53,721 nt of DNA from the UHGV virus genome UHGV-0138535. The stretch is one strand, 5' to 3'. Every line of letters begins with the position of its first letter. Positions within the stretch are counted from its first letter, which is position 1. This DNA is from a virus. The notes beneath the pieces were generated by a model. The model did not search any database. It was not told where the DNA came from and saw only the letters and a list, made by a program, of their open reading frames with translations. The position numbers were made by a program, and so were the translations under genes. This document shows, one piece after another, positions 1-13,605 of this stretch.

Positions 1-441
1 ATCCGGTTTACGCCATAACGTTGACAGTGCGCCCACCGGATTTTCCACCATCCACGGCACGTTATGCATATTCGCCAGTTTTTCTACCAGTTTTGCGTTA
101 TGCGCCGCCTTCACCTGGAAGTCAGGGTCTTTTTTCCGTTTATCAGCGAACCAGCGAGCGCCTGAAACGGCGAGATTGTCGCATGGAGGAAAGCCCAAGA
201 TAATGTCAGGATCTGGATAAACAGACAATTCAGGGGAGAACATTACCAGGAAATGGCTGTCAATCCATACGTTAAGATATTCAATATTTGGATGAATTAT
301 TTTTACCCCGTCATAATCCCCGTGATTAGCGCCGTCATAGTTGAAGCAATAGCATTTATAACCAGCTTCCGCCCAATCTTTAACGGCGTACCCGCTTCCG
401 TCGTACAGCGACCAGATAACCCAATTTCTAAGCCCGCTCAT
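1..441 (-). CDS. C5-cytosine DNA methyltransferase-like protein, N-terminal part (open to left edge; in-frame continuation at 53398..53721 if circular)
   Basis: Minus-strand ATG at 441 overlapping upstream stop (ATGA); 147 codons open to position 1; SLYDGSGYAVKDW, GFPPCDNLAVSG and MVENPVG resemble C5-MTase motifs I, IV (PC) and VI (EN). Confidence 0.55.
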   Translation of the reverse strand, partial: MSGLRNWVIWSLYDGSGYAVKDWAEAGYKCYCFNYDGANHGDYDGVKIIHPNIEYLNVWIDSHFLVMFSPELSVYPDPDIILGFPPCDNLAVSGARWFADKRKKDPDFQVKAAHNAKLVEKLANMHNVPWMVENPVGALSTLWRKPD

Positions 442-941
442 TTTCTACCCTCAAACGTGAAATAGCGGCGCATGATGATAGTGATCACCGTTACCGCTGC
501 CATTTTTGAGATGAATTGCATAGCTGATATTTCCGGCATAAACGCCATAAACGATAGCGTAGGAAAAATTAACGCATCACCAATGGCGGACGCTATATTT
601 GCAGGCCAACGTTTAGAATCGAAATCACCAGGTAAAACCCGGTAAACGCCGCCAGAAATAAGCGCACCGGAAACAACCGCGACGAATGACGCGATCGCCA
701 CCATTCCGGCGTCGTAATTTATCAGCACCGTGATTGCGCCAGCGGCGGAGCATGTTGTAGCCGACCATTTAAGGCCGCCGCCATATAACAGAAAATCACG
801 AATCATCATATTGACACACACGGCGGCTACCGTGGTGATCGGAATTACCCACGGGCCACAGTGGTTAACAATAAGATTGATGATAACGAAAACGGCGACA
901 TAAACGCAGGCTAATAACCTGTCAATTGCCACCATCTTCAT
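438..941 (-). CDS. small integral membrane protein, tentatively VUT/YhhQ-like transporter family
   Basis: 167-aa track ORF, mostly hydrophobic with several predicted helices; weak recalled resemblance to YhhQ-type transporters; family assignment tentative. Confidence 0.4.
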   Translation of the reverse strand: MKMVAIDRLLACVYVAVFVIINLIVNHCGPWVIPITTVAAVCVNMMIRDFLLYGGGLKWSATTCSAAGAITVLINYDAGMVAIASFVAVVSGALISGGVYRVLPGDFDSKRWPANIASAIGDALIFPTLSFMAFMPEISAMQFISKMAAVTVITIIMRRYFTFEGRK

Positions 942-1260
942 TTAGCTCTCCCTCCCGATCCGCTAATATCTGTTCGGCCTTAAGCGCGTTATAAGCAATA
1001 AGGTCTATAAGAGTGTCGAGCGGATCAGTTCCATTAGCGAGAATAGCCCCTAAACGCGCTTCCTTGAGGCAAATCATTAGATCCCATACATCAAGTGGGG
1101 TTAAATTTGCATTCATCTTAGCGTTGAAAATAGCCGCTATTTTTGGCGCTGATTTTTCTTCTTTTCGATCGTATCCGTTTTGCTCCCCTCTTGCCTCGAT
1201 AGTTTCAGCCGCAAGTCTCAGCAATTCAGCCGCTTTATTCATTTTCTGCACCTCTTGCAT
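922..1260 (-). CDS. hypothetical protein
   Basis: 112-aa track ORF co-oriented in early-left operon; overlaps Dam 3' end by 26 nt. Confidence 0.45.
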   Translation of the reverse strand: MQEVQKMNKAAELLRLAAETIEARGEQNGYDRKEEKSAPKIAAIFNAKMNANLTPLDVWDLMICLKEARLGAILANGTDPLDTLIDLIAYNALKAEQILADREGELNEDGGN

Positions 1261-1774
1261 ATAGCTCTTTACGTGTTATCTGCGTGAAAATACATTCATG
1301 TCTGCATCGTGGATGCCAGATCAGGAACAAGCTCCCCTTATTGTTCCCGCTTACTGGTTTCCCTGTTGCAGCATTGATAAACGCCAGCCGCCCGCGCGTG
1401 ATTAATCGGCATTCGTTTGCCGTCTCCACGCCGTTCATAAACCAGCTAACAGAAATGTCAGCGGGCAATAACATTACGCATCCGATATGATTTCGGCGGT
1501 GTTCAAACGCCGCTTTATCAACGAATGGCCCCGGATTAGAATATGGCGGATTCATCCAGACATACTCACCAGGCATCGCCACCGCTCCCCACGGATAATG
1601 GAGCGTGTCCATTTCTTCGGTTATATATCGCGGTATTAATGCGTTTGCCTTGTTTGCCGCCACATCCGCGACGAACTCGAATTCTCGATCCATTCCTCTA
1701 AAAACGGGTTTTGGCGTTTGCCATAAGTCCTTTATTTCTTTCGGCGTATGGCTGCCGCCGTAATCATTTTTCAT
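1235..1774 (-). CDS. DNA N6-adenine methyltransferase (phage Dam-type)
   Basis: 179 aa; NPPY catalytic motif in WMNPPYSNPGPF typical of N6-adenine MTases. Confidence 0.8.
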   Translation of the reverse strand: MKNDYGGSHTPKEIKDLWQTPKPVFRGMDREFEFVADVAANKANALIPRYITEEMDTLHYPWGAVAMPGEYVWMNPPYSNPGPFVDKAAFEHRRNHIGCVMLLPADISVSWFMNGVETANECRLITRGRLAFINAATGKPVSGNNKGSLFLIWHPRCRHECIFTQITRKELYARGAENE

Positions 1775-1783
1775 TACGCCCCC

Positions 1784-2227
1784 TTAGAAATAATCCTGAT
1801 CTGTTCCCCAGCGGTTATTCAGATACCCCACCAACCACACAAAACGCTCAATACTGATTAGCGGGGCGACCTTGCGATAATGCTTATCTAATATCAGCCG
1901 CGTGGCTTTATCGCTGTAGCCGTTCTTCTCTACCTCCGCTTTGCAGGCCGAAAGCGCGGCGCGGGCGGCAGTCTTTACGGCGTTAAATTGCGGCTCTGAC
2001 ATATTGAATAAGGCCATAGGATCACCATGTGTCAGTCCAATCCGGCGCGGCAGTCCAGCAAAAACCAATGAATGCGCTAACAGCCAATAAAGCGCGGGCT
2101 GCAAAAAGAATATTCCCAATGTCGTTAAATTCAGGAAGCGACCACGTAATAAACATACCCCCCCAGCATAATAACACTGATAACAGTCAGGGCCGCCAGG
2201 AAAACAAAAAGCGTAGCCAAAAGCCAC
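1784..2227 (-). CDS. hypothetical protein (start uncertain)
   Basis: 147-aa track ORF in co-directional gene array; N-terminal third hydrophobic and Cys-rich, true start may be internal (MALFNMSEP). Confidence 0.4.
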   Translation of the reverse strand: MAFGYAFCFPGGPDCYQCYYAGGVCLLRGRFLNLTTLGIFFLQPALYWLLAHSLVFAGLPRRIGLTHGDPMALFNMSEPQFNAVKTAARAALSACKAEVEKNGYSDKATRLILDKHYRKVAPLISIERFVWLVGYLNNRWGTDQDYF

Positions 2228-2260
2228 GCCCCCAACCAGTTAAAAAAGCTCTTAAGCATT

Positions 2261-2464
2261 TTAAACGCCCTCAATTACCCCGCCTTTCACGCGCTCTTTA
2301 ATATCCCATACGTGAGGCTTGCATATTTCCTGATAATAGTGATCCGGCCTGCTGCCGAAATACCATTTGCCATCCATATAAAAATAAACGCCAGAATAAT
2401 TTCCTGGCGCTGCCTTTGTTGCTGCTTCTGGAATTTTCCATTCCATGTAATGTTTAAATTTCAT
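2261..2464 (-). CDS. hypothetical protein
   Basis: 67-aa track ORF, co-oriented, tight spacing. Confidence 0.4.
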   Translation of the reverse strand: MKFKHYMEWKIPEAATKAAPGNYSGVYFYMDGKWYFGSRPDHYYQEICKPHVWDIKERVKGGVIEGV

Positions 2465-2648
2465 GAGTTTTTAAATAACCCCTTCTGAATGCTTTGATGT
2501 AAATTCCTAGTCGCCTTATATGTTGAACGCCATCAATAAGACGTATTAAATAAATCGCTCCTTTTGCGTCAGATACAAATCTACACCCGAAACCAATGCC
2601 AACTAATTTTAGGTTATCAGGTATTCGATAATCAGTTTCTTGTTCCAT
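2454..2648 (-). CDS. hypothetical protein
   Basis: 64-aa track ORF overlapping neighbour by 11 nt. Confidence 0.35.
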   Translation of the reverse strand: MEQETDYRIPDNLKLVGIGFGCRFVSDAKGAIYLIRLIDGVQHIRRLGIYIKAFRRGYLKTHEI

Positions 2649-2746
2649 ACATTACCTCATATGGTATTCAATAAACCATCTGATAAACAGGCATAAGGCA
2701 ATAAAACCCCAGCAACAGCACATATAAAACAATGTGTCGTCCATAA

Positions 2747-3025
2747 TTAAGCCTCAATAACACCGTAATCAAACGTGCCTAAATACAGTTCGATACTTAC
2801 AACCTCAATACCATCAATGCACCGTTTCCACACAGACACCTGGCTTTCATTTTCTCTGAAGTGCATATTAGAAAGCACTTCATCGGCTGGGTAGCCTTTC
2901 CCGGCGACGTAGGCATCGTGACCTACGCCACCTTCTACACAGTAGAGCATCAATTCGCGTTCCATCTTGCTTCCTCCGCACCGTAAACCTTTTAATTTCG
3001 ACTTACAAAACGGATACGCAATCAC
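2747..3025 (-). CDS. hypothetical protein (start uncertain)
   Basis: 92-aa track ORF; internal Met (MERELMLYCVEGG) may be the true start. Confidence 0.35.
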   Translation of the reverse strand: MIAYPFCKSKLKGLRCGGSKMERELMLYCVEGGVGHDAYVAGKGYPADEVLSNMHFRENESQVSVWKRCIDGIEVVSIELYLGTFDYGVIEA

Positions 3026-3063
3026 AATACAAAGTGTATATTCATGTAATCGGAATCACTCGG

Positions 3064-3684
3064 TTAATGCAGTACACGTTTCCCCTGTTCAGGCATCGGC
3101 TGTGCGTTTTTCCGTGCGTCATTAAGCACAGCGATAGCCGCCTGTACACCGAAATCATTTGCACGCATATCATTGCCAACCATTTCACCGTAAAACAATG
3201 GCATGAGCGCTTTTACTTCTTCCTCTTTGTGGCCTTCCTCAATGAATTTCTGCAACATCTTAACCTCAAAGATATCTTTCATCAGGCCGCGCATAGAATG
3301 TAGTGAAACACTACCAAGCTGATCCTTGTTCAACGGAAAAATAACAGCACTTCCGAACGCGAGCGGTTCAACCTCTTCCGGCACTGGTACGCGTCCGAAT
3401 TCTTCCTCCATGCGCTTCACAAAAGTAAGAGAGAATACATAACGCGCCACCGATGTTTTTTCTTCCATACTTAAAGACACGTAATCGCGGATTGGCGCAC
3501 CCATCACAATATCAACAACCTGTAGCGCCAGATTCAAATCAGCGTCATACGCGCCAGCTTCCATATCTTTCAATACTTCGTGATAATCTTTAATTTCCAC
3601 TTCGTGAAAGTTTGCATCATCTGTATAGCGAGTGATCAACATACCTTCATTACCGAGAGAGTAAGCTGTTTTGATGTCGTTCAT
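3064..3684 (-). CDS. hypothetical early protein
   Basis: 206-aa track ORF in early-left operon. Confidence 0.5.
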   Translation of the reverse strand: MNDIKTAYSLGNEGMLITRYTDDANFHEVEIKDYHEVLKDMEAGAYDADLNLALQVVDIVMGAPIRDYVSLSMEEKTSVARYVFSLTFVKRMEEEFGRVPVPEEVEPLAFGSAVIFPLNKDQLGSVSLHSMRGLMKDIFEVKMLQKFIEEGHKEEEVKALMPLFYGEMVGNDMRANDFGVQAAIAVLNDARKNAQPMPEQGKRVLH

Positions 3685-3697
3685 GATATTTATCCTT

Positions 3698-4030
3698 TTA
3701 TAGTGGGTGATGCCATTTCATTTCTGTTTCTGAATTAAACGGGTTTCCTTCGCTTGAAAGGAATAAATCACGCTCCCGTTTCAGTTCTTCCGGGCTTATT
3801 TCTATTTCATCAATCTGACCGAACGATCCCGGCATCATTCGTTTTAAATCAGATAGCGGACGCATAAGGCCGCAGCCGCGTAACAGCATATCGACCGCGA
3901 ATTGTCTACGTCCGGCGGCGTCATTAAAGCGCCGTGCCCAGGGTACAACCACGATCCGGCGTTCGAATTCGATAAATAGTGATAGCTTATTTGTTTCGCT
4001 ATCATAGGCCTTATGTAATTTAATTTTCAT
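3698..4030 (-). CDS. hypothetical protein
   Basis: 110-aa track ORF; overlaps next gene by 11 nt. Confidence 0.45.
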   Translation of the reverse strand: MKIKLHKAYDSETNKLSLFIEFERRIVVVPWARRFNDAAGRRQFAVDMLLRGCGLMRPLSDLKRMMPGSFGQIDEIEISPEELKRERDLFLSSEGNPFNSETEMKWHHPL

Positions 4031-4211
4031 TTAACACCTCAACATATTGTTCAAGATGCCATTTACCCACCTCGTCGTCTTCTTCATCAAATAATGTTAC
4101 TTGACCCCCTGACCCGAAAGAAAAGGCAGCGACAATAAATTTATAGCCATACCACGTGCGGATCTTTTCTCCGCCTTTCAGGTCTTTAACTTTCACTAAT
4201 TTTATAGCCAT
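4020..4211 (-). CDS. hypothetical protein
   Basis: 63-aa track ORF, overlapping neighbours on both sides. Confidence 0.4.
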   Translation of the reverse strand: MAIKLVKVKDLKGGEKIRTWYGYKFIVAAFSFGSGGQVTLFDEEDDEVGKWHLEQYVEVLNEN

Positions 4212-7229: not shown

Positions 7230-7877
7230 TTATGGCAGGTTTACGATCTTCGCATCAACCACCACGCCTATAATTTTTGATTCTGGATTCATAGGGATTG
7301 GCGGATACAGCGGATTGAGCGAACGTAAAAGCCTTTGACCTCCATCAATAATCAACTGTTTAAACGTCGGTATCTGCCCTTCCTCAAGCTGGGCTATAAC
7401 CAGTTTGCCGTCAATAGCTGGCGCGTGCGGGTCCACAAGTATCATCGTCCCCGCCGGGATGCTCAACCCCTGCGGCGCGTTCATTGATTCACCTTTGGCA
7501 ACCAGCCAGTAACTGTCATCTGAACAAATAACGCTAGTCGTAACGTGTCGTAATGCTGAACGCCTTGCGTCATCCATATTGTTTACTGTGTCCTTCCAGT
7601 CAATAACCGGGTAACTACCTAAATCACGCGGCGGCACGGCCTGAAGTGTATTAGAAACAGAATCATCAATGACCATGCCATCATGTGTAACAGTAAACTG
7701 CCGACGACCAAGCTCGCGCATAATCCGCGCAATATCTTCAAGATTTGGCTCTCGGCGACCGTTCAGCCAGTGTGACAGGCCGCCTTTAGTTATCCCCATA
7801 CGATCCGCGAGTGAATCCTGGCTCATGCCCTGCGCCCGCATGAGCTGCTTTGCTAAGTCATACCATTTTGTTTTCAT
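7230..7877 (-). CDS. CI-like prophage repressor (HTH plus S24 LexA-type peptidase domain)
   Basis: 215 aa; N-terminal HTH (SQDSLADRMGITKGGLSHWLNG), C-terminal peptidase with AKGESM serine motif. Confidence 0.85.
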   Translation of the reverse strand: MKTKWYDLAKQLMRAQGMSQDSLADRMGITKGGLSHWLNGRREPNLEDIARIMRELGRRQFTVTHDGMVIDDSVSNTLQAVPPRDLGSYPVIDWKDTVNNMDDARRSALRHVTTSVICSDDSYWLVAKGESMNAPQGLSIPAGTMILVDPHAPAIDGKLVIAQLEEGQIPTFKQLIIDGGQRLLRSLNPLYPPIPMNPESKIIGVVVDAKIVNLP

Positions 7878-8443: not shown

Positions 8444-9496
8444 ATGAAGTGGTTTAAGCATGACAGCGATGCGAACCGCGATGAAAAACTTCAAAACGTT
8501 TTGTTAGATTATGGCCTGGAAGGGTACGGGCTTTATTGGTATTGCCTCGAACTAATAACTTATGACGTAGATCAGCACAATCTGAATTTTGACCTACGAC
8601 ATGACGCGAGAATCATTGCGCGAAACGTCGGATCTACTGAAAAACGTATAGAAGAAATGATGAAATACTTCATCGAAATTGGTTTGTTTGAATGTTCTCA
8701 AGGCCACATAACTTGTTTAAAGTTATTGAAAAGGCTGGACCAATCAATGACTTCTAAAAGCGCTTACAGGGCCGCCATAAACACAGCGAAGGAGCAATTA
8801 AAATTAGAAAAGTTAATCAATCCAACACAAAAAGGTCATGATAGGGTCATGACCGGGTCAGGAAAGGGTCATGAATTAGAATTAGAAGTAGAAAAAGAAA
8901 GAGAAAAAGATATATACACTTCGTGTATTGTCGAAAATGAACAAAAAATGGTCAATCAGGATGGCGTAAACGAAGCGGCATTGCGTTGCCTTGCCTTCTA
9001 CAACGACAAGGCAGGATGCAAATGTCGTGATGCTAAGCCATTCGTAGAACTACTGACAGAAACAAAAACACGTAAAGCGTATACGGAGAATGAGATCACG
9101 TTAGTAATTGAGTGGGCTTTAACCCAATGGCGTAGCCGTGGTGGAGTACCTAAGCCTATCAACATTTGCCGGGTAACTAAATTTGATGGGTATCTGACTG
9201 ATGCTGAACAATGGCGCAAACTGTCAGCCACTGTAAACGCTGCCGACGTGGTGGAAGCATTTAACAGCACGTTTGACGGCCTGTTACCACCTGCCGAACT
9301 GGATCGGGATCTTGAACGCAAGATCTATGCGTTCACTGACTACCTGAAAGACAAAAGCATTAACGGCTTTGTCGCCTACTTCGAAACGTTCAAAAACACG
9401 GCTTCAGATTTTTACTTCGGCGATGGCTTCACCGCGACACTTGATTTCCTGCTTAAACCAAAAACGCTACGTGATACGCGCGCTGGCGTTCTTTGA
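8444..9496 (+). CDS. replication initiation protein (DnaD-like N-terminal replisome organiser domain)
   Basis: 350 aa; N-terminus MKWFKHDSDANRDEKLQNVLLDYGLEGYGLYWYCLE typical of phage replisome organisers; precedes helicase. Confidence 0.7.
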   Translation: MKWFKHDSDANRDEKLQNVLLDYGLEGYGLYWYCLELITYDVDQHNLNFDLRHDARIIARNVGSTEKRIEEMMKYFIEIGLFECSQGHITCLKLLKRLDQSMTSKSAYRAAINTAKEQLKLEKLINPTQKGHDRVMTGSGKGHELELEVEKEREKDIYTSCIVENEQKMVNQDGVNEAALRCLAFYNDKAGCKCRDAKPFVELLTETKTRKAYTENEITLVIEWALTQWRSRGGVPKPINICRVTKFDGYLTDAEQWRKLSATVNAADVVEAFNSTFDGLLPPAELDRDLERKIYAFTDYLKDKSINGFVAYFETFKNTASDFYFGDGFTATLDFLLKPKTLRDTRAGVL

Positions 9497-9629
9497 CCAA
9501 TCACGATCCGCAAAAATCCAAAATTACCCACAAAACAACCTCACCAGCGAGCTAAATCGCATGTGGTGCTACACTTGCTTACCTTTTTGCGATTAGCTCG
9601 TTATAGAGCGTTACGGAGAGGATTTTAAA

Positions 9630-9731
9630 ATGGACGGTAAACACGTTTTCGCCCTGGCTTTTGCCATCGCTGCGGCAATCGCTGTTAACGTCGCCTTGTT
9701 CGGCGGTCTGTACCTGCTAATCAATCCATAA
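9630..9731 (+). CDS. hydrophobic micro-protein (33 aa, single predicted TM helix)
   Basis: ATG preceded by GGAGAGG; MDGKHVFALAFAIAAAIAVNVALFGGLYLLINP; not in track. Confidence 0.35.
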   Translation: MDGKHVFALAFAIAAAIAVNVALFGGLYLLINP

Positions 9732-9870
9732 CCTACCTACCATTCTGTAAATCGAAAATTAGCCACCTGATGGCGTCTCTGACGCAATAAGACACTGCAA
9801 CCTGTGCAAACGGGTGTCGCGGTGGGTTTTTGCGTTGTAGCGCGCATGATGTTCTTAAGGAGTTGGAGCG

Positions 9871-10407
9871 ATGCGCAAGTTAACACATGAAGAACAAGTT
9901 GCAGCTATCGCGAAAGTTAATCCTGATGTTGAAGTGCTGGTTGAAATAGTTAATAACAGTACAAAAGTATTATGCCGCTGCAAGGTTTGTGATCATGAGT
10001 GGTCGGCTAAACCTAGAGACATTAAGAGCGGGCGCGGTTGCCCGAAATGCGCTAAATACGGGTTTTTATCACACTACAACGGAAAACTTTACATCATGGT
10101 TGATGATCTTGAAGTGCCTACACAAATGAAAATTGGTGTAAGCGTAAAAGAGAACGAAAGGAGGAACAGAGTATTTAAAAGTGCTCGTAAGGCAGGTGTA
10201 AGGCTGACTGATTTACAGGTAGTTAAAACATGGAATGGGCCTACTGAGATTATGCAGGAAATAGAAAGCAAAATGCACGATGCTTTCAGTGACTATAAAA
10301 TAAACTTCCCTGTTAAGTTTGATGGTAGCACTGAATTTTTTTATTACAGGCCGGAAGTATTCGACATGGTAGAAGAAACATATAAAGAGATTGTTTGCTG
10401 TCAATAA
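9871..10407 (+). CDS. zinc-ribbon plus T5orf172/GIY-YIG-like domain protein
   Basis: 178 aa; CRCKVCDHEW...CPKCA zinc ribbon; GKLYIMVDD...KIGVS...ENERRNRV...HDAF...GSTEFFYY resembles T5orf172 motifs; AT-rich; own RBS AAGGAG. Confidence 0.55.
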   Translation: MRKLTHEEQVAAIAKVNPDVEVLVEIVNNSTKVLCRCKVCDHEWSAKPRDIKSGRGCPKCAKYGFLSHYNGKLYIMVDDLEVPTQMKIGVSVKENERRNRVFKSARKAGVRLTDLQVVKTWNGPTEIMQEIESKMHDAFSDYKINFPVKFDGSTEFFYYRPEVFDMVEETYKEIVCCQ

Positions 10408-10440
10408 ATATACAAAATGTAAACATGAGGAAATAACATT

Positions 10441-11559
10441 ATGTCGCAAAGAAAAATCAGCGATGAGCAATTGATCGCTGAATATAACAACGGTTTAACG
10501 TACAAGCAGATCGCTGAAAAATATGGCATGTCAAAACGCAACGTCGAGCGGCTGGGCGCAAAGCTGGCGAAACGCGGTTTATTATCAACGCGCCGCGCCC
10601 CTGGTTTTGGCGTTACTGGTGAGTCGGTTCTTGTCGATAAGGATGGGAATACAGTCATGCGCTGGATTAAAACAGCCCGTGATCGCGATGAAATGGAAAG
10701 GCTAATGGAAGCGGCCCGCGACGCTTTCACTGAAGAAATCCCACGCGCGGAGGCCGTGCCAGTGCCGGAAATTGATTTTCAAAAAAGCCTGGCCCTTTAT
10801 CCGGTATTTGATCTGCATATCGGGGCGCTTGCTCATAAAGCTGAATGCGGCGAGAGTTACGACACTGGGATCGCTGAGCGCGTATTGAATGAATTCTTTG
10901 ACTACGCTGTAGGCGCTGCGCCGATGTCTGAGAAAGCTGTTTTGCTTCTCGGTGGGGATGTTCTTCACACTGACGGGCTGTTGCCAGTTACGCCATCAAG
11001 CAATCACGTTCTTGATTGCGATTCGCGCTATGCAAAACTTGTCTATGTAGCGATCAGGTCGGTCCGGCGGGCTGTCGGGAAGATGTTGTTAAATCATAGG
11101 GATATTGAAATCCAGGTACTATCAGGCAATCACGACCAGTCTGGTATGATTTGGCTACGTGCTGCGCTGGCGGCTTTTTACGAAGACGAACCGCGCGTAA
11201 CTGTTGATGTGTCCCCTGCTATCGTCCACCACACACAGTACGGCAAAACATTCCTTGCTTACCACCACGGGCACACTATCAAAAAGCCGGAAAATTTATT
11301 GTCTGCTTGCGTAGCTGACTGGCGTGAGGATTTCGGCAAGTCTGCGGCGGTTTACGCTCATTGCGGGCACTGGCACCATCAACGGCTGATTGAATCATCG
11401 CTAGGCGTTGTTGAGTATCACGGCACATTAGCGGGCAAAGACGCTTATTCAACTAATGGCGGCTGGCGGTCGCGGCGTCTGGCAGCGGTGATTATTTACA
11501 GCCCGGATCATGGGGAGATCGGGCGCTTTGTTTATTACCCTGAACATTCCATTTTGTAA
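10441..11559 (+). CDS. HTH domain fused to calcineurin-like metallophosphoesterase
   Basis: 372 aa; N-terminal sigma-70 region 4-like HTH; phosphoesterase motifs FDLHIG, GGDVLHTDG, GNHD, HHGH, GHWHH. Confidence 0.6.
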   Translation: MSQRKISDEQLIAEYNNGLTYKQIAEKYGMSKRNVERLGAKLAKRGLLSTRRAPGFGVTGESVLVDKDGNTVMRWIKTARDRDEMERLMEAARDAFTEEIPRAEAVPVPEIDFQKSLALYPVFDLHIGALAHKAECGESYDTGIAERVLNEFFDYAVGAAPMSEKAVLLLGGDVLHTDGLLPVTPSSNHVLDCDSRYAKLVYVAIRSVRRAVGKMLLNHRDIEIQVLSGNHDQSGMIWLRAALAAFYEDEPRVTVDVSPAIVHHTQYGKTFLAYHHGHTIKKPENLLSACVADWREDFGKSAAVYAHCGHWHHQRLIESSLGVVEYHGTLAGKDAYSTNGGWRSRRLAAVIIYSPDHGEIGRFVYYPEHSIL

Positions 11560-11577
11560 ACAGGAGGCAATAACATA

Positions 11578-12999
11578 ATGGTAACTGAGCAAATAAACTC
11601 ACTACGGCAGGAACGTGAAGCGTCAGTTATCGGCGGGCTGCTGTTAGGTGGCCTTACTCCTAACGCTCAAGATGTTCTCGCCACACTTGATCCTGAAGTG
11701 TTCACGATCCCGCTTTATAAACGTGCGTTTGAAGTTATCCGGGCGCAAGCCAGAAACAGAAATCTTATCGACGCTTTATTGGTTGGCGATGAAATTGGCA
11801 ATGAAAACTTTGTACCACTGATGCAAACGGCGCGATCGTGTCCTTCTGCTGCCAACCTGAAGGGATACGCACAGCTACTACGTGAAGAGCACCAGCGGCG
11901 GCAGATGTTGGAACTCATCGACGATATGCGCTACAAACTGGAAACGGGGACGCTTGAAGTCGTCAGGGAGACGATGAAAGATTTTGATTCCCGGTATTCA
12001 AAATTAAAGGTAACAAAAGATCAAATTATCCCGGTGCTGTTGCGCGATGCGGTCCAGGAATACACGGAAGTGTTAAGTAAACGCATGGAGTGTGGCGTGA
12101 ACTCTGACAACATCAAAACAGGGATTGACCCACTCGACGAAATGTTAGGCGGCATTAACGCTACTGATCTGGTGCTTATCGCCGGACGCCCAGGGTCTGG
12201 TAAATCGGCGTTGGCGTTGGCAATTGCCCGCGCGGCGGCTGAACGTCCATACCCTGGAGGCGAAGGTCAGCGGGTCGGCGTTTTGCTGTTCACGCTTGAA
12301 ATGTCGCTCGATCAGATGACTGAACGCGCTATCGCTGGCGCGGGTAACTTATCAACGGATTGCCTACGTAATCCGGTAAAACTGGATGACGAAGGTTGGG
12401 CGCACGTAGCACAGGGAATGAGCGCCCTTGCCGATCTCGACGTGTGGATTGTTGACGCATCGCAGTTAACGGTCGAGGAAATACGCGCCACCGTCGAACG
12501 GATGAAACAGGACCATCCTAACCTGGGGATGGTAATGATTGACTACATCGGGTTAATGAAGCTGGCTAAGGCCGAGCGTCATGATCTCGCTGTAGGGCAA
12601 TTGTCGTGGTCATTGAAAATGATGGCGAAGGAGTTGCGCGTGCCAGTAGCGGCACTTGCGCAATTATCCCGCCGCGTTGAGGAACGACCGAACAAGCGCC
12701 CGAACAATTCTGATCTGCGTGATTCCGGTAATCTTGAACAAGACGCAGACCGGATCATCATGGTCTACCGCGACGGCTACTACAACGAACAATCTGTTGC
12801 CCGCGAATACATGGAGATTATCGTTTCAAAAAACCGTCACGGGAAAACGGGTACTGTTTACCAGCGGTTTGATGATAACGGCAACATTTTACCATGCGAC
12901 CAGGCCCGCGCGGCTTCGGCTTGCATTCAGTCTATGCAACAACGTCCGTCTGCAAGCCGATTCTCACCACGAAACAACCAGAATAACGCATCTTTTTAA
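11578..12999 (+). CDS. DnaB-family replicative helicase
   Basis: 473 aa; Walker A GRPGSGKS, DnaB-like N-terminal domain and RecA-like C-terminal motifs. Confidence 0.85.
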   Translation: MVTEQINSLRQEREASVIGGLLLGGLTPNAQDVLATLDPEVFTIPLYKRAFEVIRAQARNRNLIDALLVGDEIGNENFVPLMQTARSCPSAANLKGYAQLLREEHQRRQMLELIDDMRYKLETGTLEVVRETMKDFDSRYSKLKVTKDQIIPVLLRDAVQEYTEVLSKRMECGVNSDNIKTGIDPLDEMLGGINATDLVLIAGRPGSGKSALALAIARAAAERPYPGGEGQRVGVLLFTLEMSLDQMTERAIAGAGNLSTDCLRNPVKLDDEGWAHVAQGMSALADLDVWIVDASQLTVEEIRATVERMKQDHPNLGMVMIDYIGLMKLAKAERHDLAVGQLSWSLKMMAKELRVPVAALAQLSRRVEERPNKRPNNSDLRDSGNLEQDADRIIMVYRDGYYNEQSVAREYMEIIVSKNRHGKTGTVYQRFDDNGNILPCDQARAASACIQSMQQRPSASRFSPRNNQNNASF

Positions 13000-13077
13000 T
13001 TAACTTGAGAAACGGCTTACCGGAAAGTTTACCGCTTTCTGGTGGCTGTTTTCGCGCTTAAATCGAGGCTAGAAACA

Positions 13078-13605
13078 ATGAAAACCATTTATAAAACACA
13101 AATAGCGAAATTTTTACAGGATGCCACTGTTGCTGGTGAAGCAACAATTATTAAATCTATTCCAGGTCCTGAAATCGAGATCGTTAATAGTTTGCGTGAT
13201 ATGGTTTCTGACGGCGCTATTATTCCTGTGGAAATGGGAGGGCCGCGATTATCATATTGCTTGAAGTCAGTGCGCGAAATGGCAATAAAAAAAATCATGC
13301 CTTTATTTCTGAATAGTAGCAATTATTTTTCTGCTGAGGATGTTAAAAAAGAATTAAAACTCGAAATAAAACAGAGGAAAATTTGTCGGGTTTTAAAGAT
13401 GTTAGGCAGTGAAAATTTATTAACAGTTAATAAATTTGATGGGAAATACTTTTTTAGATCAGCTCGCTTCTATGGTTGTTCGAGTCCTATCGTATTTGAA
13501 TTTAACAACCGCCTGAATGAATACCGGAAAAATAACGGCCTGCTGCCGGATAAACCAGTATTTGAGATCGAAAAACTTAACGGTGAAACGGGGTTGGAAT
13601 TATGA
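13078..13605 (+). CDS. hypothetical protein (AT-rich moron)
   Basis: ATG at 13078 with GAGG RBS inside track ORF 13042..13605; markedly AT-rich versus flanks. Confidence 0.45.
   Translation: MKTIYKTQIAKFLQDATVAGEATIIKSIPGPEIEIVNSLRDMVSDGAIIPVEMGGPRLSYCLKSVREMAIKKIMPLFLNSSNYFSAEDVKKELKLEIKQRKICRVLKMLGSENLLTVNKFDGKYFFRSARFYGCSSPIVFEFNNRLNEYRKNNGLLPDKPVFEIEKLNGETGLEL

Follow-up and report, generated by a model that had tools for sequence, protein, structure and literature searches.

A putative zinc-finger T5orf172 homing endonuclease gene in a variable slot of the replication module of mEp021-like temperate coliphages

The window, that is, the whole stretch of DNA analysed here (UHGV virus genome UHGV-0138535, 53,721 nucleotides), is a temperate coliphage, about 54 kb long, of the mEp021-like ('mEpimmI') group, which has been described previously (PMC11893012). 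The region under study is 87-91% identical to MagusPhagus, mEp515, mEp013, mEp554, mEp044, mEp010, and mEp021; among 5426 complete E. coli genomes, 35 contain prophages that match it. An earlier note, made from the letters of the window, had singled out an open reading frame of 178 amino acids, ORF178, as a zinc-ribbon plus T5orf172-like protein inserted in the replication module. The reading frame is present on the plus strand with an ATG start, and its translation holds every motif that was quoted. The predicted gene and its two modules are as follows.

9871 to 10407, plus strand: ORF178, predicted one-finger ZnF-T5orf172 endonuclease gene; the exact protein is P0118 / HHU7458932.1.
9871 to 10068, plus strand: predicted N-terminal DNA-binding module, aa 1-66, with one DUF4379/CapR-type treble-clef zinc finger (C37/C40...C57/C60 and the conserved C35 and H42).
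10069 to 10404, plus strand: predicted C-terminal T5orf172/MUG113 nuclease domain of the GIY-YIG superfamily, aa 67-178, with the motifs GKLY74IM, K87-I-G89, R97, E132..H136, and E155-FF.

The claimed ribosome-binding site of its own, AAGGAG, is found at 9857-9862, 8 nt 5' of the ATG. The AT-rich composition holds as well, but only to a moderate degree: ORF178 has 39.1% GC versus 45.7% for the window, which places it at the 7th percentile among 537-nt windows, and the two genes downstream have about 51% GC. Upstream lie a cI/LexA-like repressor gene (7230-7877, minus strand) and a Lin1244-type replication initiator gene (8444-9496). The gene had been placed between the replication initiator and the helicase. 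The initiator side of that description is correct, whereas the helicase is not the next gene: a 372-aa HTH and metallophosphoesterase-type gene (10441-11559; PHROG 704, E 9e-138), the ortholog of which is named metallophosphoesterase family protein by PGAP, intervenes before the DnaB helicase gene (11578-12999). No paralogs of ORF178 were found within the window by tblastn, and the '11 places' of match in mEp021 were ruled out as paralogs, being accounted for by the multi-finger gene of that phage. An Rfam search of 9400-10500 gave no match.

The description of ORF178 as a moron is not supported in the strict sense. Crude consensus scans found no sigma-70-like promoter on the plus strand between 9497 and 9870, and therefore ORF178 is not a strict moron; the only strong promoter match near it is on the minus strand, and no terminator-like site was found 3' of it. 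The gene is co-directional within the early operon, 3' of a hairpin and T-run, and the next gene begins after 33 nt. By these crude scans, ORF178 looks like an early-operon member rather than an autonomous moron.

Other variable or small features accompany this module. The conserved intergenic region 5' of ORF178 contains a strongly hydrophobic small ORF of 33 aa (9630-9731, plus strand; MDGKHVFALAFAIAAAIAVNVALFGGLYLLINP), which is kept in relatives with mostly conservative changes, is annotated 'hypothetical' in MagusPhagus, mEp515, and mEp013, and may encode a small membrane peptide. Directly 3' of the helicase gene lies another variable slot (13042-13605, plus strand, 36.5% GC), encoding a 187-aa MarR-like protein (PHROG 1687, weak); relatives carry other genes there (MarR, Lrp/AsnC, HTH, or hypothetical), and several close relatives have no alignment at 13150-13450. 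Between the metallophosphoesterase gene and the helicase gene, mEp021 and mEp515 have an HNH/'homing endonuclease' gene (L004:4181-4684; L002:4287-4841), which overlaps the 3' end of the metallophosphoesterase gene. The window is empty at this second nuclease slot of the same module (11559-11578, an 18-nt gap). For mEp010, too, a 'homing endonuclease' is listed within the region of match.

The domain assignment draws on profile searches, a structure model, and residue conservation. Pfam DUF4379 matched aa 28-62 with 32.7 bits, over the cutoff of 24.5, and the Pfam CapR homology domain reached 22.3 bits, just under its cutoff of 24.2. The claimed C4 zinc ribbon is borne out by the former match and by the conservation of the Cys ligands in 26 homologs. 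For the nuclease domain, PHROG 681 'endonuclease' matched aa 22-172 with an E-value of 6.7e-31, while Pfam MUG113 (PF13455; 21.2 bits, gathering cutoff 22.3) and T5orf172 (PF10544; 18.7 bits, gathering cutoff 20) both stayed just under their cutoffs. In the HMM search that the earlier note had suggested as a check, ORF178 itself is under the Pfam T5orf172/MUG113 cutoffs, whereas PHROG 681 matched it and orthologs exceed the T5orf172 cutoff. The mEp021 ortholog, a protein of 495 aa that is 74% identical and has five finger repeats, is over both nuclease cutoffs (22.3 and 23.2), and the CapR score in multi-finger orthologs rises to 55-97 bits. A per-protein Pfam scan of 26 homologs detected DUF4379 in all 26, CapR in 22, T5orf172 in 20 (E <= 0.001), and MUG113 in 14. 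No NCBIfam model matched ORF178, and PADLOC gave no significant defence match, with PDC-S57 as the sole hit (E 0.0041, 14.7 bits). Sequence searches of the PDB with the single protein and then with a profile retrieved no nuclease relative; only the finger of a DUF4379 protein was matched, by the profile.

Structure prediction, another of the suggested checks, gave a confident AF2 model (pLDDT 91) with the GIY-YIG fold, a three-stranded beta-sheet with flanking helices, and the model matches the GIY-YIG nucleases Slx1 and I-TevI. The Foldseek comparison against the PDB was weak. In the alignment of the 26 homologs, T84, K87, G89, R97, L115, E132, G152, and E155 of the nuclease domain and G56, C57, C60, and A61 of the zinc-finger module are invariant; C35/C37/C40, C57/C60, and H42 are invariant or nearly so, and Y74 and H136 are nearly invariant. 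When ICP1 Odn, ICP1 gp121, and bridging homologs were aligned with ORF178, Y74, K87, G89, R97, G123, E132, and E155 were invariant. The second motif reads K87-I-G89, with Lys for the Tyr of the canonical YIG, in all aligned T5orf172 proteins including Odn. Pairwise BLAST of ORF178 to Odn and to gp121 was not significant, so the link to them rests on the multiple alignment and HMMs. Odn cuts dsDNA in vitro, and its E180A exchange abolishes cutting; its authors equate E180 with the catalytic Glu needed in I-TevI (PMC8263062). Odn E180 aligns to E132 of ORF178, and the invariant R97 and E132 provide the helix-1 Arg and the Glu expected of a GIY-YIG active site. The HMMs, the model, and the conserved catalytic residues together support the proposed T5orf172/GIY-YIG-like nuclease domain, and the current label 'zinc-ribbon domain-containing protein' would be better replaced by 'putative T5orf172/GIY-YIG homing endonuclease'.

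Among known systems, ORF178 is closest in kind to the T5orf172 homing endonucleases with CapR/DUF723-type fingers, represented by ICP1 Gp174, Gp165, Gp121, Gp53, Gp130, and their relatives (Netter et al., 2021; Barth et al., 2023, PMC10448857). Barth et al. described zinc-finger DNA-binding repeats, in-frame repeat deletions, and positions at genetic-exchange boundaries for these proteins (PMC10448857). They name one finger family 'DUF4397 (PF14344)' (PMC10448857); the finger matches here are to DUF4379 (PF14311) and, in homologs, also to DUF723 (PF05265). Like the ICP1 proteins, ORF178 has its zinc-finger module at the N-terminus and its T5orf172 domain at the C-terminus, and repeat number in its family varies by in-frame recombination, as between gp174 and gp174* (PMC10448857). 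Both also sit at genetic-exchange boundaries beside essential genes. The ORF178 family thus shows the traits listed by Barth et al., namely finger repeats with a terminal T5orf172 domain, variable repeat number, presence/absence polymorphism in syntenic genomes, and location at exchange boundaries. The known T5orf172 homing endonucleases come mainly from lytic phages (ICP1, T5-like phages, and others), whereas ORF178 is found in a temperate mEp021-like coliphage and in its prophages, within the replication operon, and, unlike the ICP1-type genes, it shares its slot with Bro-N/Rha/KilAC and DUF559 cassettes.

Among close analogues, cleavage of dsDNA has been demonstrated only for Odn (ICP1 Gp88), which has the same catalytic domain. 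Odn differs in that its RepA_N DNA-binding domain was captured from the satellite that it attacks, and in being a domesticated, non-homing protein. The Cys4 zinc-finger DNA-binding domain of CapR, a protein of the V. cholerae PLE satellite, is homologous to that of ORF178, but CapR lacks a nuclease domain and represses transcription. In the canonical GIY-YIG homing endonucleases, I-TevI and the T4 Seg proteins, the domain order is the reverse of that in ORF178, in which the nuclease is C-terminal and the second motif is K-I-G rather than Y-I-G; no sequence similarity between them and ORF178 was detectable. Slx1 and At-HIGLE are eukaryotic structure-specific repair nucleases with a C-terminal RING finger; at 7-12% identity, they are unrelated to ORF178 in sequence and biology.

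Homologs with 60-66% identity occur in rV5-like Vequintavirus, inside or beside fragmented nrdD, and one of them is annotated 'putative homing endonuclease'. More distant homologs (about 36% identical) directly adjoin nrdD in T5-like phages. These nrdD sites are classic homing-endonuclease niches. In Vequintavirus, the anaerobic ribonucleotide reductase gene is in several pieces (L095, phage navn, 1-4200; L096, WalterGehring, 303-4040), interspersed with at least two different endonuclease-type ORFs, one of which is the ORF178 homolog of 310-330 aa.

Comparison with insert-free relatives, which the earlier note had also called for, delimited the insertion. The site is empty in related phages and prophages, for instance in MagusPhagus and E. 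coli 09-00049, and the cassette, by alignment about 9845-10404, stands in place of 10 nt (TTTTACGGAA) of the empty allele, so that the insertion boundaries lie at about 9845 and about 10404. The flanks are organised as follows.

9791 to 9844, plus strand: conserved left boundary of the slot, a hairpin (GACACTGCAACCTGTGCAAACGGGTGTC) followed by GCGGTGGGTTTTTGCGTTGTAGCGCG, with a terminator-like look, present in all relatives whatever the occupant.
9845 to 9870, plus strand: cassette-specific leader of 26 nt, CATGATGTTCTTAAGGAGTTGGAGCG, including AAGGAG at 9857-9862; it replaces the TTTTACGGAG... leader of all non-nuclease and empty alleles.
10408 to 10440, plus strand: conserved right boundary, ATATACAAAATGTAAACATGAGGAAATAACATT, containing the inverted repeat TACA-AAA-TGTA and the ribosome-binding site of the next gene.

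The RNA fold of the left-boundary hairpin is no better than that of shuffles (z -0.93); hence we do not claim a terminator, and such a function is suggested only by the shape and the T-run. All relatives have in common ...GCGGTGGGTTTTTGCGTTGTAGCGCG on the left and (A/G)TATACAAAATGTAAAC..GGAGGAAATAACATTATG, the start of the next gene, on the right, and the empty allele reads GTAGCGCG-TTTTACGGAAAATAA-ATATACA.... Variant forms of the inverted repeat (ATATACAAAATGTAAAC, 10408-10424) follow every occupant and are present in empty alleles; the repeat could be a protein-binding or recombination site.

The slot is either empty or filled with a ZnF-T5orf172 gene of various lengths, with Bro-N plus KilAC, Rha plus KilAC, or Rha, or with a 351-aa DUF559 (endonuclease-like) gene. 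Among 39 mEp021-group genomes in IMG/VR, 14 have ZnF-T5orf172 (eleven 3-finger, one 2-finger, and two frameshifted 1-finger alleles), 14 have Bro/Rha/KilAC types, 5 have DUF559, and 6 are empty. TTTTACGG directly follows the left element in 27 of the 27 nuclease-free alleles examined, and both nuclease-type cassettes carry TCTGAGGCGTT or CATGATGTTC in its place. The DUF559 cassette has the same 11-nt leader, TCTGAGGCGTT, as most ZnF-T5orf172 cassettes, and in the DUF559 loci and the LP-26 locus the cassette is separated from the next gene by an additional AT-rich insert of about 143 nt (L011:2477-3532 and L006:3391-3566). ICP1 odn (gp88) adjoins a Bro-N/KilAC 'anti-repressor Ant' gene (L098, 2828-4415), which echoes the alternation of T5orf172 and Bro-N/KilAC genes in the coliphage slot.

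Two zones of exchange and two features within the gene bear on the history of the allele.

9755 to 9870, no strand assigned: 5' exchange zone; one locus (L015) is divergent up to 9754/9841 and identical from 9842.
10401 to 10553, no strand assigned: 3' exchange zone, inside which loci with an identical nuclease allele switch to a divergent haplotype.
9928 to 9936, plus strand: deletion junction, a crossover between repeat 1 and repeat 3 of a three-finger parent (387 bp lost, in frame), with the breakpoint at ORF nt 58-66.
10336 to 10342, plus strand: T7 homopolymer in the E155-F-F-Y-Y codons, where alleles of relatives are frameshifted both ways (L020, L035; P0076, P0087).

Between 9616 and 10553, five loci with the same nuclease allele (L008, L018, L022, and the 1-finger L099 and L100) are nearly indistinguishable from the window; dense divergence sets in at 10554. 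L015, after its divergent part, is identical to the window through 11186, and L101 has a divergent patch at 10401-10584 beside the same protein. Over 6.5 kb, another one-finger contig (L102) shows no difference from the window. The exchange breakpoints are at most about 150 bp from either gene end.

A three-finger gene encoding 307 aa, present in E. coli FAH and other prophages, matches the DNA of ORF178 with 0 mismatches in 537 positions and one 387-bp in-frame gap. The ORF178 allele thus derives from a three-finger gene by a very recent deletion that left one finger and fused the start of repeat 1 to repeat 3. The exact 178-aa protein was found in 9 contigs from independent samples, and the three-finger form in 176 contigs. 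A single 90% protein cluster holds 178-, 240/244-, 307-, and 374-aa forms, corresponding to 1 to 4 fingers. One-finger alleles are scattered among 2- and 3-finger ones on the nuclease-domain tree, which indicates that finger loss is recurrent; for the same reason, we rejected an old, separately maintained one-finger lineage. The identity run common to both repeats at the crossover is 8 nt (nt 59-66), and a 26-nt run was also available. The one-finger allele is present in at least three downstream haplotypes, and the use of the shorter run makes a single origin followed by spread or exchange likelier than repeated deletion; recurrent identical deletions were accordingly judged the less likely source of the allele in several backgrounds. 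Other one-finger alleles are 5-10% diverged and still intact. Relative to the mEp013 ortholog, dN/dS is 0.13 overall, 0.18 in the finger region, and 0.10 in the nuclease domain, values that reflect the history before the deletion and come with a dS of about 1.05, near saturation. Decayed alleles include 103-aa N-terminally truncated forms in addition to the frameshifted ones; the independent +1 and -1 frameshifts at the T7 tract could be real decay at a mutational hotspot or homopolymer assembly error.

These data together make it probable that ORF178 is a selfish gene of the homing-endonuclease type, free-standing and belonging to the T5orf172 branch of the GIY-YIG superfamily. The earlier note had offered a selfish endonuclease as one of its options, and that option gained support from the HMMs, the structure model, the conserved catalytic residues, the presence/absence polymorphism, the breakpoints at the gene ends, and the homologs in homing niches. 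ORF178 is a further example of the kind that Netter et al. (2021) and Barth et al. (2023) have reported. What the analysis shows is its domain architecture, fold, conserved catalytic residues, insertion polymorphism, breakpoints, and repeat deletion, from which we infer nuclease activity, a target site, and homing. The N-terminal treble-clef zinc finger would bind DNA, and the C-terminal domain would cut it by means of Y74, K87, R97, E132, and E155. The gene is probably co-transcribed with the replication genes in lytic growth. When a phage with the cassette meets a related genome without it, in co-infection or as a resident prophage, the nuclease would cut near the slot, and recombinational repair would copy the cassette with short flanks into the cut genome. 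Such repair would explain why the exchange breakpoints hug ORF178. A computational search for the target site of ORF178 derived none. The dN/dS of about 0.13, combined with frameshifted and truncated alleles elsewhere, fits the life cycle of a homing endonuclease.

Possible, though rather doubtful, is that this particular allele is a dead or dying remnant, in which the loss of two fingers ended target recognition and the ORF is intact only through the recency of the deletion. Loss of two of the three fingers may have changed or abolished specificity or activity, and the one-finger form, being rare (9 versus 176 contigs) and very young, may be non-functional. The absence of any substitution in the 537 positions since the deletion, the far commoner three-finger form, the position of one-finger alleles as scattered tips among multi-finger relatives, and the existence of frameshifted one-finger alleles are all in keeping with such a remnant. 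Against this stand the occurrence of the deletion allele in at least three downstream haplotypes, with a crossover in the 8-nt rather than the 26-nt run, which favours one origin and later spread or exchange, and the intactness of other one-finger alleles despite 5-10% divergence. A dying allele overlaps with, and at the family level is compatible with, the homing-endonuclease interpretation.

Because Bro-N/Rha/KilAC genes swap between the same flanks, ordinary homologous recombination could give the same mosaic without a nuclease. ORF178 might then be a passive accessory cassette in a slot that is a recombination hotspot through its conserved flanks, with a protein that acts mainly in regulation by binding specific DNA sequences, as CapR does and as I-TevI does when it represses itself. 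Seven kinds of occupants are found within these flanks, most of them DNA-binding or antirepressor-type, and CapR, to which the finger domain is related, functions as a repressor (bioRxiv 10.1101/2020.11.28.402263). However, CapR has no T5orf172 domain, while in the ORF178 family the catalytic residues are invariant and dN/dS of the nuclease domain is about 0.10. Moreover, relatives of ORF178 occupy classic homing niches, and both nuclease-type cassettes replace TTTTACGG, which all 27 nuclease-free alleles keep. We therefore regard a passive cassette as improbable.

Quite improbable, too, is a domesticated nuclease of benefit to the phage, like Odn, serving in exclusion or as an anti-satellite or anti-competitor weapon against rival phage, prophage, or satellite DNA: Odn and the proposed odn-like E. 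coli phage genes provide a precedent (PMC8263062, PMC10448857), the site beside the replication initiator is suggestive, and the cassette is common (14 of 39 related genomes), but the known cases took the DNA-binding domain (RepA_N) of their target whereas ORF178 keeps homing-type zinc fingers, PADLOC returned no significant match (E 0.004, 14.7 bits), and the frequency of empty and decayed alleles shows that the gene can be dispensed with. The findings speak neither for nor against the exclusion or anti-defence nuclease that the earlier note had offered as its other options.

Returning to ORF178 as a homing-type gene, the slot as a whole might be an arena of allelic competition, in which two unrelated nuclease cassettes displace Bro-N/Rha/KilAC genes and empty sites and in which fast turnover of fingers (1 to 4 or more) re-targets the nuclease. 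The one-finger allele would then be functional, with re-specified or relaxed recognition, and would have spread into at least three backgrounds. We consider this extension speculative and hold its likelihood to be low.

Work on T5orf172 homing endonucleases has so far dealt mostly with lytic phages, and ORF178 puts this kind of gene in the replication operon of common gut temperate coliphages. The mEpimmI/mEp021-like phages offer a natural allelic series of empty, 1- to 4-finger, and frameshifted alleles and of alternative occupants, with mEp013, mEp021, and MagusPhagus available as isolates. The series is well suited to asking whether these genes home, how finger number relates to specificity, and how such genes shape the mosaic boundaries of temperate phages.
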